Source of the DNA: Escherichia coli
GTDB lineage: Bacteria; Pseudomonadota; Gammaproteobacteria; Enterobacterales; Enterobacteriaceae
Assembly: GCF_041248615.1 (NCBI RefSeq)
Contig: NZ_CP158426.1
Length of the DNA stretch: 64,000 bases
Reading direction: 5' to 3' (one strand)
The position numbers and the translations under genes are program-made. Below the pieces are notes generated by a model. That model searched no databases. It saw nothing but the letters and a program-made list of their open reading frames with translations, and was not told the DNA's origin. Shown in pieces: positions 17,859 through 25,125 of the stretch. Each line of letters starts with the position of its first letter. The stretch's first letter is position 1.

Positions 17859-18620
17859 ATGCCCGATCAAACACAACAATTTTCGTTCAAGGTGCTCACC
17901 ATCAATATTCACAAGGGCTTTACCGCGTTTAACCGACGCTTCATTTTGCCGGAACTTCGCGACGCCGTGCGTACCGTCAGCGCCGATATTGTTTGCCTGC
18001 AAGAAGTGATGGGCGCGCACGAAGTTCATCCGCTGCATGTGGAAAACTGGCCCGATACCTCGCACTACGAGTTTCTCGCCGACACTATGTGGAGCGATTT
18101 TGCCTACGGTCGCAATGCCGTATACCCGGAAGGGCATCACGGCAACGCTGTACTGTCGCGTTATCCCATTGAACATTATGAGAATCGCGATGTTTCGGTC
18201 GATGGTGCGGAAAAGCGCGGCGTGCTCTACTGCCGCATTGTGCCGCCGATGACCGGGAAAGCGATTCATGTGATGTGCGTACATCTGGGCCTGCGTGAGG
18301 CGCACCGTCAGGCGCAGCTTGCGATGCTCGCCGAATGGGTGAATGAGCTACCGGACGGCGAGCCGGTATTGGTGGCGGGTGATTTCAACGACTGGCGGCA
18401 AAAAGCTAATCATCCGTTAAAAGTGCAGGCCGGACTGGATGAGATTTTTACCCGCGCCCACGGACGCCCGGCGCGCACGTTTCCGGTGCAATTTCCTCTA
18501 CTACGACTGGACAGGATCTACGTCAAAAATGCCAGTGCCAGCGCGCCAACCGCGTTGCCGCTGCGGACATGGCGACACCTTTCTGATCATGCCCCTTTAA
18601 GTGCGGAGATTCATTTATGA
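17859..18620 (+). CDS. ybhP: endonuclease/exonuclease/phosphatase-family protein YbhP
   Basis: 253 aa; EEP motifs; start 4 nt overlap with clsB. Confidence 0.9.
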
Positions 18621-19858
18621 AATGTAGCTGGCGCGAAGGCAATAAGATCCAGTTGCTGGAAAATGGCGAGCAATATTATCCCGCGGTGTTTAAGGCGATT
18701 GGCGAGGCACAAGAACGTATCATTCTTGAAACGTTTATCTGGTTTGAGGATGACGTCGGCAAACAACTGCATGCGGCACTACTGGCAGCAGCGCAACGCG
18801 GGGTAAAAGCGGAAGTCTTACTTGATGGCTACGGTTCGCCGGATCTCAGCGATGAGTTTGTCAATGAACTGACGGCCGCTGGCGTGGTGTTCCGCTACTA
18901 CGATCCCCGCCCTCGCCTTTTTGGTATGCGCACCAATGTGTTTCGCCGGATGCATCGCAAAATTGTGGTGATCGACGCGCGTATCGCCTTTATTGGCGGG
19001 CTGAATTACTCCGCCGAGCATATGTCCAGCTACGGCCCGGAGGCCAAACAGGATTACGCGGTACGCCTTGAAGGGCCGATTGTCGAAGATATTCTGCAAT
19101 TTGAACTGGAAAACCTGCCAGGACAGAGCGCGGCACGACGCTGGTGGCGACGTCATCACAAAGCGGAAGAGAACCGCCAGCCGGGAGAAGCGCAGGTATT
19201 GCTGGTCTGGCGCGATAACGAAGAACATCGCGATGATATCGAACGCCACTATCTGAAAATGCTCACTCAGGCGCGGCGGGAAGTGATTATCGCCAACGCC
19301 TACTTCTTCCCCGGCTATCGATTTTTACACGCCTTGCGTAAAGCGGCACGGCGCGGAGTGCGGATCAAACTGATCATTCAGGGCGAACCGGATATGCCGA
19401 TTGTCAGAGTCGGCGCGCGCTTGCTGTATAACTATCTGGTTAAAGGCGGCGTTCAGGTGTTTGAGTACCGCCGCCGCCCGCTCCATGGCAAAGTTGCATT
19501 GATGGACGATCACTGGGCGACAGTAGGGTCCAGTAATCTCGATCCGCTCAGTTTGTCACTGAATCTCGAAGCAAATGTCATCATCCACGATCGTCATTTT
19601 AACCAGACGCTGCGCGATAATCTGAACGGCATCATCGCCGCAGATTGTCAGCAGGTGGATGAAACCATGCTGCCGAAACGCACCTGGTGGAACCTGACTA
19701 AAAGCGTGCTGGCGTTCCACTTTTTACGCCACTTCCCGGCGCTGGTTGGCTGGCTTCCGGCACACACGCCACGTCTGGCGCAGGTTGACCCGCCCGCTCA
19801 GCCGACAATGGAAACGCAGGATCGGGTAGAAACTGAAAACACGGGGGTAAAACCCTGA
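18617..19858 (+). CDS. clsB: cardiolipin synthase B (phospholipase D family)
   Basis: 413 aa; two HxK(x)4D motifs (HRKIVVID.., HGKVALMDD..). Confidence 0.93.
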
Positions 19859-20814
19859 TGAGTAAATCACACCCGCGCTGGCGCTTAGCAAAGAAGATCC
19901 TCACCTGGCTGTTTTTTATCGCGGTGATTGTGTTGCTGGTGGTCTACGCCAAAAAGGTGGACTGGGAAGAGGTCTGGAAGGTCATCCGCGACTACAATCG
20001 CGTTGCGTTGCTCAGTGCGGTCGGGCTGGTGGTCGTCAGTTATCTGATTTACGGCTGCTATGATCTGCTCGCCCGCTTTTACTGCGGTCACAAACTGGCG
20101 AAGCGCCAGGTGATGCTGGTGTCGTTTATCTGCTACGCCTTCAACCTGACGCTCAGTACCTGGGTCGGCGGCATTGGTATGCGCTATCGTTTGTACTCCC
20201 GGCTAGGGTTACCGGGCAGCACTATTACGCGGATTTTCTCGCTCAGTATTACCACCAACTGGCTGGGCTATATTTTACTGGCAGGGATTATCTTCACCGC
20301 AGGCGTGGTGGAGTTGCCGGATCACTGGTATGTCGATCAAACCACGCTGCGTATTCTCGGCATTGGCTTATTGATGATTATCGCGGTTTATTTGTGGTTT
20401 TGCGCTTTCGCGAAGCACCGCCATATGACCATCAAAGGGCAAAAGCTGGTGCTGCCTTCATGGAAATTCGCCCTCGCCCAGATGCTGATTTCCAGCGTTA
20501 ACTGGATGGTCATGGGAGCGATAATCTGGCTGTTACTTGGTCAAAGCGTGAACTATTTCTTTGTACTGGGCGTGTTGCTGGTTAGTAGTATTGCCGGGGT
20601 GATTGTGCATATTCCGGCGGGGATTGGTGTGCTGGAAGCGGTATTTATCGCGCTACTGGCTGGGGAGCATACATCCAAGGGCACAATTATCGCCGCCCTA
20701 CTCGCTTACCGTGTGCTGTATTACCTTATCCCGCTGCTGCTGGCGCTGGTTTGCTATCTGGTACTGGAAAGCCAGGCGAAGAAGCTACGAGCGAAAAATG
20801 AAGCGGCGATGTGA
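19858..20814 (+). CDS. ybhN: inner membrane protein YbhN (lysylphosphatidylglycerol-synthase-TM-like)
   Basis: 318 aa multi-TM ORF; start overlaps clsB stop. Confidence 0.9.
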   Translation: MSKSHPRWRLAKKILTWLFFIAVIVLLVVYAKKVDWEEVWKVIRDYNRVALLSAVGLVVVSYLIYGCYDLLARFYCGHKLAKRQVMLVSFICYAFNLTLSTWVGGIGMRYRLYSRLGLPGSTITRIFSLSITTNWLGYILLAGIIFTAGVVELPDHWYVDQTTLRILGIGLLMIIAVYLWFCAFAKHRHMTIKGQKLVLPSWKFALAQMLISSVNWMVMGAIIWLLLGQSVNYFFVLGVLLVSSIAGVIVHIPAGIGVLEAVFIALLAGEHTSKGTIIAALLAYRVLYYLIPLLLALVCYLVLESQAKKLRAKNEAAM

Positions 20815-20849
20815 AGTTTAGTTAAGTTCTTTAGTATGTGCATTTACGA

Positions 20850-21239
20850 CTAATGAAAAAAACGCGTATGCCTTTGCCAGACAAGCGTTATAGCTATCGC
20901 GGCAAGTATCCCAAAGAAGCCGATAAAATAGTAATAGAGTGTTAATGCACCTGTAAAAGCGCAACGAACCGGACTCCACAACTCTTCGCTATGGCATTTT
21001 CCTGCCAGTTCAAGGAGCTTATTTCGTCCATGCGAGATAATGCCTGACCATAACACAATCATTAAGCAACTTATTACCCAAACGGGTCGTTCACTCATTA
21101 ATGCGGCATCCATGATGATCACCAGGACCAGCTCTGCGGTTGTCACCAAACCCAAAGAGGTAATGAGCCATATGCCGTTTAATATCCTGGCCTCGTGCTG
21201 AAAATCTAATTTATTGCTGTTTTGCGAGTATGATTCCAT
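20850..21239 (-). CDS. ybhM: YbhM-like inner membrane protein, apparently short/truncated (129 aa)
   Basis: ORF 20850..21266 trimmed to MESYSQNSNK; hydrophobic; only about 4 predicted TM segments; reference ybhM is remembered as about 237 aa. Confidence 0.55.
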   Translation of the reverse strand: MESYSQNSNKLDFQHEARILNGIWLITSLGLVTTAELVLVIIMDAALMSERPVWVISCLMIVLWSGIISHGRNKLLELAGKCHSEELWSPVRCAFTGALTLYYYFIGFFGILAAIAITLVWQRHTRFFH

Positions 21240-21443
21240 TCTTTTAGTTGTCCTTAGAAAAAACATTAATATTCACCATCAATAAATTTAAAACCACGCA
21301 TACAAAATATTTTTGTATTTATGGATACGGAAAACACTTCCGCTCGGCCATAAGGCATATTTTATACCTGGTACTTGTTAAGTGTCGTTTTTAGTAAGAA
21401 AAAAATCCCGACACATGGCCGGGATATTGATGGTGAAAAAGAA

Positions 21444-22148
21444 TTAACGGCGGTTGCCGAAGATCCGCAACAACATCAGGAACAAGTTGATGAAGTCCAG
21501 ATACAAGGTTAACGCGCCAAGAATGGAATATTTGCGCAGGTTCGACGTGTCGCGGGTATCAATCTGCTCACCCATATTTTTCAATTTCTGAGTGTCATAC
21601 GCCGTCAATCCGACAAAGACAATCACGCCGATGTAGGTAACTGCCCACATCAATGCTTCGCTTTTCAGCCAGAAGTTGACCAGCGATGCCAGCACAATGC
21701 CGATTAACGCCATAAACAGCATATTGCCAAAGCCGCTTAGATCGCGCTTCGTGGTGTAACCGTACAGGCTCATTGCGCCAAACATCCCGGCAGTAACGAC
21801 GAAAGTACTGGCGATAGAAGCAGCGGTATAGACAATGAAAATACTGGAAAGCGTAAGACCCGTCAGCGCCGAATAAAGCATAAAGAGCATCGTCGTTACA
21901 CCTGCGCTCAGCTTTTGAATCATCGCTGATAACACAATAACCAATGCTAATTGCGCGATGATCAGACCGATTAAAAAGACACGGTTAGTGAACAACAGCT
22001 CCATCACGGCCGCGGAATTAGCCGCATACCAGGCAACAAATGCGGTCAGCAACAAGCCAACGGTCATCCAGCCATAGACTTGCGCCATATAAGTTTGCAA
22101 GCCAGCCCGGGGTTGTACAATTGAATCAGAACGTGGGAATCTGTCCAT
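21444..22148 (-). CDS. ybhL: BAX inhibitor-1 family inner membrane protein YbhL
   Basis: ORF 21444..22229 trimmed to MDRFPRSDSIVQ (234 aa); 7 TM pattern. Confidence 0.88.
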   Translation of the reverse strand: MDRFPRSDSIVQPRAGLQTYMAQVYGWMTVGLLLTAFVAWYAANSAAVMELLFTNRVFLIGLIIAQLALVIVLSAMIQKLSAGVTTMLFMLYSALTGLTLSSIFIVYTAASIASTFVVTAGMFGAMSLYGYTTKRDLSGFGNMLFMALIGIVLASLVNFWLKSEALMWAVTYIGVIVFVGLTAYDTQKLKNMGEQIDTRDTSNLRKYSILGALTLYLDFINLFLMLLRIFGNRR

Positions 22149-22284: not shown

Positions 22285-22737
22285 CTACCAGCGTTTTGCC
22301 GCCTGCTGATCGCTCTCCCGAGCTTCGACCCAGCGGTCGCCTTCCGGCGTGGCTTCGCGCTTCCAGAACGGTGCGCGGGTTTTGAGATAATCCATAATAA
22401 ACTGCCCGGCTTCAAACGCACTGCTGCGATGCGCACTGGTGACACCGACAAAAACGATTTCATCGCCCGGCCATAATTCCCCGATGCGGTGAATCACCGT
22501 GACGCGCCCCAGCGGCCAGCGGTTACGCGCTTCATCGACAATTTCTGCCAGTGCTTTTTCAGTCATCCCCGGATAGTGTTCGAGGGTTAATGCTTTGACG
22601 CTGTCGCCAAGGTTATGGTTGCGCACCTTACCGGTAAAGGTGACTACCGCACCGTCTTCATCACGCTCCGCCAGCCACGGATACTCTTCTCCTACGCTGA
22701 ATGGCTGCGGGCCGACAACAATTTTGGTTTCTGCCAT
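22285..22737 (-). CDS. moaE: molybdopterin synthase catalytic subunit MoaE
   Basis: 150 aa; recognised; last gene of moaABCDE. Confidence 0.93.
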   Translation of the reverse strand: MAETKIVVGPQPFSVGEEYPWLAERDEDGAVVTFTGKVRNHNLGDSVKALTLEHYPGMTEKALAEIVDEARNRWPLGRVTVIHRIGELWPGDEIVFVGVTSAHRSSAFEAGQFIMDYLKTRAPFWKREATPEGDRWVEARESDQQAAKRW

Positions 22738-23998: not shown

Positions 23999-24988
23999 TT
24001 AGCCGCCAATGTACGATAAGTTTTGCGTAATACCGGTGTTGTTTTGATGCAGGAAATGGGTCTGTTTCTTCTCCCGCAGCGCCGCTGAAATACGCGCTTC
24101 CAGCGCCTGTTGCTGGGTATCGTCTTCCAGCAGATCGCGCAGGTTAACGCCGCCTTCACCAAACAGGCAGAGATGGAGTTTACCAATGGAGGAAACGCGC
24201 AGGCGGTTGCAAGTGGCGCAGAAGTCTTTTTCATACGGCATGATAAGGCCAATCTCTCCGGCGTAATCCGGATGACAAAAGACTTGCGCGGGACCGTCGC
24301 TGCGTTGACGTAATTGGTGGATCCAGCCGCGACGCAGTAGCTCGTCACGCAGAACCTGACCAGAGATGTGATGCTTACGGAAGAGCTCGCTGCCCTCACC
24401 CGTTTCCATCAATTCGATGAAACGCAGCTGGATAGGGCGATGCTGGATCCAGTTCAGAAAGGTGTCGAGCTGATGATGATTAACATCACGCATCAGCACG
24501 GTATTGACTTTGACCTTCTCAAAACCGGCCTCAAATGCAGCATCGATCCCTGCCATGACCTGGTTAAATTTATCCTGCCCGGTAATGGCATGAAACTGGC
24601 GAGCGTCAAGGCTATCAACGCTGACGTTGATGCCAGTAAGTCCCGCATCGCGCCAGTTCGCCACATCGCGTTCCAGACGGTAACCATTGGTGGTGACCGC
24701 AATCTGGCGGATAGCGTCGTTTTCCCGCACAGCGGCGATGATATCGGTAAAGTCGCGGCGTAAAGACGGCTCACCGCCTGTCAGGCGCACTTTTTCGGTG
24801 CCCAGACTGGCAAAGGCGCGCGTAACCCGGCGAATTTCATCGACGGTAAGAAAGCCTTTATTGGTGACGCCGCTCGGTTTGTAGCCATCCGGCAGGCAGT
24901 AGGTGCAACGAAAGTTACACACATCAGTAATCGACAGGCGCAAGTAGTAAAACTTACGCGCAAATGCATCAGTCAGTTGTGAAGCCAT
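23999..24988 (-). CDS. moaA: GTP 3',8-cyclase MoaA (radical SAM)
   Basis: 329 aa; CNFRCTYC radical-SAM cluster and C-terminal cysteine cluster; ORF trimmed to [19 protein letters not shown]. Confidence 0.93.
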
Positions 24989-25125
24989 GTACACCTTTCC
25001 AGATACGGGAGGCGAAGTCATTTCTTTCTTCGCCCTGGTGGCAATCTTTACGAGCATTGTCACGGCCAAAGCACCGTATCAGTTGACCCAGGTGCAGAGG
25101 CTAGAGTGTTTAGTGGTTAAGCCGA
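24989..25125 (-). ncRNA. Moco (molybdenum cofactor) riboswitch in moaA 5' leader
   Basis: position directly upstream of moaA start; leader sequence matches what I recall of the E. coli moaA Moco RNA motif; boundaries approximate. Confidence 0.55.

Follow-up and report, generated by a model that had tools for sequence, protein, structure and literature searches.

A common in-frame deletion allele of the Escherichia coli Bax1-I family gene ybhM, probably formed between short direct repeats

The ybhM gene in the window, as we call the whole stretch of 64,000 nucleotides of Escherichia coli DNA analysed here, is shorter than that of K-12, and we consider it probable (about 0.8) that it is a natural, in-frame, repeat-mediated deletion allele, now a still-open, drifting remnant whose ancestral function has been lost. 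The full-length gene encodes a divergent protein of the Bax inhibitor-1 family (BI-1/TMBIM, Pfam Bax1-I), whose members are inner-membrane proteins with seven helices. In the scheme that we propose, the deletion would have taken away the core of the fold, TM2-TM4, and with it the role of the full-length protein, and the remnant would persist as an open and probably still transcribed reading frame because ybhM is, as we suggest, weakly constrained and dispensable in E. coli. The hybrid helix created by the deletion appears to be drifting, the window allele now having Glu in place of Gly144 and Asp in place of Asn152 (K-12 numbering), both of them positions conserved in the family. The short allele is an ordinary polymorphism, and it is already present in databases as an annotated 129-aa protein.

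Results

The ybhM locus and its reading frame

The gene order in the window, clsB (18617-19858, + strand), ybhN (19858-20814, + strand), an open reading frame on the − strand, ybhL (21444-22148, − strand) and moaE (22285-22737, − strand), is the moaE-ybhL-ybhM-ybhN-clsB order of K-12 seen on the opposite strand. Both immediate neighbours are intact; ybhN is convergent with the frame between them, and ybhL, which lies upstream of it, is a paralogous Bax1-I gene with a Pfam score of 212 bits. The location of this frame between ybhL and ybhN, together with collinear high identity to K-12 outside a single gap, identifies it as the orthologue of E. coli ybhM.

An earlier note on this DNA had described the frame as a ybhM of about 129 aa (MESYSQNSNK..QRHTRFFH), compared with an expected length of about 237 aa in K-12, and both lengths are borne out. 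Translated from the K-12 start (ATG at 21239), the window product begins MESYSQNSNK and ends QRHTRFFH after 129 aa, and the short allele occupies 20850-21239 (− strand; 129 codons and a stop) by the listing of open reading frames and by alignment with K-12, whereas K-12 ybhM (b0787, NP_415308.1, 'Bax1-I family protein YbhM') has 714 bp and encodes 237 aa. The interval from the ybhL stop to the ybhN stop had been put at about 630 bp and is 629 bp in the window (20815-21443); the shortfall relative to K-12, given as roughly 250 bp, had been underestimated, since the K-12 interval is 953 bp (820589-821541) and the difference is 324 bp. An in-frame ATG is found 27 nt before the K-12 start (21264-21266, − strand), and with it the mechanical reading frame runs over 20850-21266 and encodes 138 aa, but in the alignment the same position is ATA in K-12, in several other strains and in several of the short alleles, and for this reason the upstream ATG (at 21266) is probably not the start of ybhM.

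The region is 100% identical to that of E. coli NRZ14408 (NZ_LT599825.1), where RefSeq places at the equivalent of 20850-21239 a coding sequence of 390 bp, WP_001589933.1, annotated as 'hypothetical protein'. The GC content of ybhM is 0.42-0.44, compared with 0.51 across the window. In a stretch identical to K-12 upstream of ybhM there is a promoter-like site, ACGACA-N-TATAAA(AT) (21359-21388, − strand), and for the ybhL-ybhM spacer, marked 'HNS' in their table, Shimada et al. (PMC3946193) list a constitutive RpoD promoter with these hexamers. Between the two genes lies a hairpin that resembles a terminator of ybhL, ATCCCGGCCATGTGTCGGGAT with a T run after it (21405-21425, − strand). The Rfam scan of the ybhL-ybhN interval found no RNA family; elsewhere in the window a molybdenum cofactor riboswitch (RF01055, 102.9 bits) is located upstream of moaA (24976-25120, − strand), as expected for this operon, and two adjacent tRNA genes at 61845-61997 (− strand).

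Anatomy of the deletion

Alignment of the window with K-12 ybhM, which had been proposed as a check, gave one gap of exactly 324 bp at both the DNA and the protein level, in frame and comprising codons 36-143 (108 codons), and outside it the DNA is about 96% identical to K-12. The 'internal deletion or truncation' previously suspected is therefore an internal deletion and not a truncation, both ends of the gene, its start, its stop and the promoter-like site being intact.

Inspection of six long alleles revealed that the lost segment is bounded by imperfect direct repeats 324 bp apart, CAGGGCTGGCC on the left and CAGGGTTGGCC on the right, in the contexts GCA GGG CTG GCC TGG and ACA GGG TTG GCC CTG, respectively. 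The consensus of the left repeat in these alleles is CAGG(G/A)CT(G/A)GCC and that of the right CAGG(G/T)TTGGCC; depending on the strain, 8-10 of 11 nt match between the two, with an exact core, TGGCC, of 5 nt. Both copies encode Gly-Leu-Ala in the same codon phase, one in TM1 and the other in TM5. Short alleles have a single copy, CAG(G/A)(G/A)CTGG(C/T)C, which is a hybrid that combines the C of the left repeat at the variable position with the CCC of the right repeat. In the window this copy, CAGAGCTGGTC (21126-21136, − strand; nt 104-114 of the coding sequence), constitutes the deletion junction, within which the exact position of the break is ambiguous, the repeat being common to both ends. 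A repeat search on one long allele did not report the junction repeat, because its exact core is only 5 nt, and the repeat was established instead by direct comparison. No inserted, foreign or mobile-element sequence is present at the junction. Three features, namely repeats that border the segment in intact alleles, a lone hybrid copy in the deleted ones and the absence of any insert between the flanks, together mark this as a microhomology deletion, which would have arisen through replication slippage or short-homology recombination between the repeats; since the repeats are in phase, the reading frame was kept automatically.

Other lesions are found in the same gene. Among public E. coli proteins there are three further in-frame deletions of ybhM, of 42 codons between ATCATCGTG repeats, of 29 codons between TGTTTTTAATC repeats and of 21 codons between (G/C)CGCCAT repeats (proteins P0011, P0017 and P0009, respectively, mapped on full-length ybhM including that of K-12), and in each case the direct repeats are short and in phase. 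Elsewhere in E. coli ybhM carries IS1 insertions and frameshifts, and in strain 042 (NC_017626.1), which we take to belong to phylogroup D, a full-length ybhM with an internal stop is flagged as a pseudogene. The same strain has four extra small genes between ybhM and ybhN (locus L021, 13350-16045), encoding a DUF3969 protein, a hypothetical protein, a SUKH-4 family immunity protein and another hypothetical protein, none of which K-12 or the window has. Other, larger deletions at the ybhM locus are suggested by a handful of genomes in which the match is limited to the far edge of the region (H30) or to the final 33 nt of the 324-bp segment (H70).

Frequency and haplotypes of the short allele

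The frequency of the deletion was determined in 5,426 complete E. coli genomes, a collection that lacks UMN026 (NC_011751.1), with a junction probe of 40 nt and an E-value cut-off that a match to one half of the probe could not reach. The junction is present in 575 genomes, in several sub-haplotypes and as one chromosomal copy each, at identities ranging from 100% to 90% (at least 99% in 184 genomes, 95-99% in 284 and 90-95% in 107). Conversely, the 324-bp segment was found in 4,733 genomes, with at least 80% of it covered in 4,509 and only a part of it present in about 220; it was without a match in the other 693, and 688 of these keep the flanking sequence. In all 12 short-allele genomes whose annotation was examined RefSeq has an intact 129-aa coding sequence, none flagged as a pseudogene, under six different protein accessions, and a coding sequence lies beneath the junction in 60 of 60 sampled junction matches.

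In the public collection 629 contigs encode the exact protein of the window (P0179), and each of four other variants is found on at least 1,000. The word-indexed protein search with the short protein yielded chiefly fragments and allelic variants and not the main 237-aa cluster; it served to detect other lesions and not to estimate frequencies. Only three complete genomes reach 99% identity to the window over an 861-bp region, and by this comparison the window therefore carries a less common sub-haplotype of a common allele. The available text of the literature on NRZ14408, 50579417, EBJ003, JNE21-003 and Ecol_545 gives neither phylogroup nor sequence type for these strains; strain S88, presumably B2, has a long ybhM allele.

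Some of the haplotypes are also distinctive outside the deletion. The ybhN protein of NRZ14408 has its own RefSeq accession, WP_001589934.1, unlike those of the other short-allele genomes examined, so that the window haplotype is distinctive in the neighbouring gene too. In the A38V sub-haplotype an inserted copy of IS200C sits at the terminator hairpin of ybhL, immediately upstream of the short ybhM (EBJ003, locus L004, about 1615-2955; 50579417, locus L008, 1-339). In GCEC19 (locus L016, 1-700) the 3' end of ybhL and the 5' end of ybhM are divergent, the spacer measures only 69 bp and YbhM starts MNSRSANNITN; a short-allele protein with this N-terminus exists (P0010), and the deletion therefore occurs on that background as well.

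This diversity raises the question of whether the deletion occurred once and was later spread among backgrounds by recombination or arose independently several times, and we regard the latter as possible rather than probable. Any slippage at this repeat would yield an identical junction, and the three further repeat-mediated deletions indicate that such events do occur in this gene, but with an exact repeat core of only 5 nt they should be rare. Some short haplotypes have GGG, or GAG derived from it, as the left-repeat codon where others have GGA, the linked right-hand haplotype is M43/V53 in some and V43 or R43 with I53 in others, and both haplotype variants are also present in long alleles; likewise, short alleles are found with the divergent N-terminus described above and with a B2-type C-terminus (P0006). 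All of this would be expected from several origins, although homologous recombination in the flanks, a common process in E. coli, accounts for mosaic haplotypes equally well, and a G at site 120 of the coding sequence is common to all short alleles and present in only some of the long ones, which argues against independent events.

Consequences for the protein and its family membership

The AlphaFold2 model of K-12 YbhM (pLDDT 93) has seven membrane helices and a loop helix, at residues 7-43, 54-76, 79-100, 103-127, 134-154, 159-178, 180-192 and 198-235. The topology of the short form had also been named as a point to check; hydropathy indicates three hydrophobic segments, as against the seven membrane helices of the K-12 model, and a single-sequence model of low confidence (pLDDT 72) has three long helices. 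The short product would consist of the first part of TM1 joined to the end of TM5, followed by TM6, the basic TM6-TM7 loop and TM7. The predicted hybrid TM1/TM5 helix is encoded by codons 19-46 (21102-21185, − strand) and contains, in the window, S28, T33, E36, V38 and D44. Because four helix-equivalents have been removed, the membrane orientation of the three remaining helices should, by helix count, be unchanged.

The Pfam profile PF01027 (Bax1-I; length 207, curated cut-off 34.1 bits) matches K-12 YbhM with 75.1 bits over positions 3-205 and the short form with 28.9 bits over positions 135-205. The short allele thus scores below the family cut-off and represents what is left of a family member rather than a complete one, and with three helices it also falls short of the seven that characterize Bax1-I proteins. 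A further family feature, the pair of aspartates in TM6 and TM7, is missing from YbhM irrespective of its length: in an alignment of 62 sequences the consensus AYDTQ and LYLDFINLF correspond to SHGRN and LYYYFIGFF in YbhM, which has G and Y at the aspartate columns, whereas YbhL keeps both conserved aspartates. No NCBIfam model matched the long or the short form. By analogy with YccA, the short protein goes under the name 'FtsH-binding integral membrane protein' in some databases; the literature searched documents no interaction of YbhM with FtsH. A link to the antisense gene asa in the 'TEGT transporter' was also considered and rejected, as asa sits in yccA and not in ybhM.

Constraint on the remnant

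In order to follow the fate of the remnant, we compared the variants private to short alleles in a sample of 10 short and 9 long alleles, a small set with visibly mosaic haplotypes in which counts are confounded by recombination. The short-private amino-acid changes are concentrated in the fused helix, A28S, L31M, G36E, A38V, V/M43R and N44D (codons 28-44), with N7S and R92S as the only ones elsewhere. In codons 25-46 there are six nonsynonymous to two synonymous short-private variants compared with two to eight elsewhere (Fisher p = 0.054; 19 sequences, with recombination as a confounder), and the contrast becomes 6:1 against 2:8, under the same reservation as to sample and recombination, when GGA at codon 36 is set aside because it is inherited from the left repeat of long alleles. 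Deamination at a Dcm site (CCWGG) was considered as the source of the recurrent GCC to GTC change at codon 38 and rejected, the mutated C not being the methylated one.

The window allele, with the five substitutions listed above, is the most derived of the sampled short alleles. Its Glu36 and Asp44 sit at the columns of K-12 Gly144, which is invariant among 62 family members, and Asn152, which is at least 90% conserved among them. No exact match to the Asp version in a long-allele context was found among 1,240 genomes with the matching long haplotype, nor to the Glu version among 4,808 genomes with a long-type context. The charged residues replace family-conserved ones inside a predicted membrane helix, and this suggests that the ancestral role has been lost in the window allele. 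Against the reading as a drifting remnant stands a cluster of four synonymous changes that only short-allele genomes carry (183 genomes at ≥99% identity), so that not all of the variation is visibly borrowed from long alleles. The frame itself is not disrupted in the manner of a pseudogene, since none of the 12 short-allele genomes, nor the window, has a stop within the 129 codons.

It could be argued that the 129-aa product is instead a functional three-helix membrane protein kept by selection, maybe through TM6-loop-TM7, and that the charged changes are adaptive; we consider this unlikely. The intact frame in 12 of 12 genomes, the coding sequence beneath 60 of 60 junctions and the retention of start, stop and promoter-like site are in keeping with selection, but preservation of the frame is automatic when the repeats share their codon phase, and the short lineages may be too young to have acquired disabling mutations; a 121-aa nonsense derivative of the short allele does occur, on 248 contigs. 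The preserved membrane topology, as judged by helix count, also speaks for a functional product, as does the mostly synonymous variation outside the hybrid helix (2 nonsynonymous against 8 synonymous), which would fit continued purifying selection on TM6-TM7; this ratio, however, comes from 19 sequences and is confounded by recombination. A further point in favour is that E36 and D44 co-occur on two different backgrounds, yet they place charge in a predicted membrane helix at family-conserved positions. Finally, even full-length ybhM is often disrupted in E. coli. A stronger version, in which the TM1-TM5 fusion would be a new, selected three-helix inner-membrane protein in about one-tenth of E. 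coli with Glu36 and Asp44 as adaptive residues, appears to us very doubtful; if it were true, the paired acidic residues could give the remnant an ion- or partner-binding role absent from the full-length protein, and the allele would represent, on a small scale, the birth of a gene through an internal deletion.

The ancestral form of the gene

In a search of 1.84 billion representative proteins, relatives of 230-240 aa with 23-35% identity align over nearly the whole of the 237-aa K-12 YbhM, and none was found between 35% and 94% identity, which makes YbhM a very isolated Bax1-I paralogue. On this comparative evidence the long form is ancestral, because both the distant relatives and the Pfam profile cover the whole K-12 protein. 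That the short form is the original and K-12 has gained a 324-bp insertion or internal duplication is a reading to which the bare length difference alone lends itself, and it is refuted by these homologue alignments, by the Pfam profile that only the long form spans end to end and by the AlphaFold2 fold, the segment encoding TM2-TM4 of a confidently predicted seven-helix structure and being present in 4,733 of 5,426 genomes. Similarly, although the sole 100% match over the region is one record, that of NRZ14408, a sequencing or assembly artefact of one genome is refuted by the same junction in 575 independently assembled complete genomes and by the exact 129-aa protein on 629 contigs.

Discussion

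Taken together, these data indicate that the locus is correctly assembled in the window and that the 129-aa 'hypothetical protein' annotated in about 10% of E. coli is a remnant of ybhM left by deletion rather than a gene of its own. Neither the function of ybhM nor the short allele is treated in any study that the literature search brought up. What emerges for ybhM is an AT-rich Bax1-I paralogue, restricted to Escherichia and under weak constraint, whose loss is proceeding by several independent routes. The short allele might be used as a lineage marker, or be studied as a natural experiment on the lone TM6-TM7 of a BI-1-type protein; neither use answers a long-standing open question, and the importance of the finding is small.

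Deletions between short direct repeats are classic slippage or short-homology events of the type known from lacI. The ybhM deletion resembles these in having repeats on either side of the lost segment in the parental allele, a single hybrid copy after the loss and no scar of a mobile element; nothing about it is unusual by comparison, its repeat being short and imperfect.

Compared with K-12 YbhM, the short product retains 129 residues that are 94% identical, and the gene has the same promoter-like site, start and stop; it differs in the loss of residues 36-143, which comprise TM2-TM4 together with the last part of TM1 and the first part of TM5, and, in the window, in five extra changes of the fused helix, A28S, A33T, G36E, A38V and N44D. 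YccA and YbhL belong to the same Pfam family as YbhM, and YbhL, its immediate upstream neighbour, has a far stronger family match (212 bits compared with 75 bits for YbhM). The structural prototype of the BI-1/TMBIM family, Bacillus subtilis YetJ (PDB 4PGR), was reportedly described by Chang and colleagues in 2014 as a pH-sensitive Ca2+ leak channel with a di-aspartyl sensor. Unlike YetJ, even full-length YbhM is without both of the family-conserved aspartates, and of the family fold the short allele keeps only the part from the end of TM5 to TM7.
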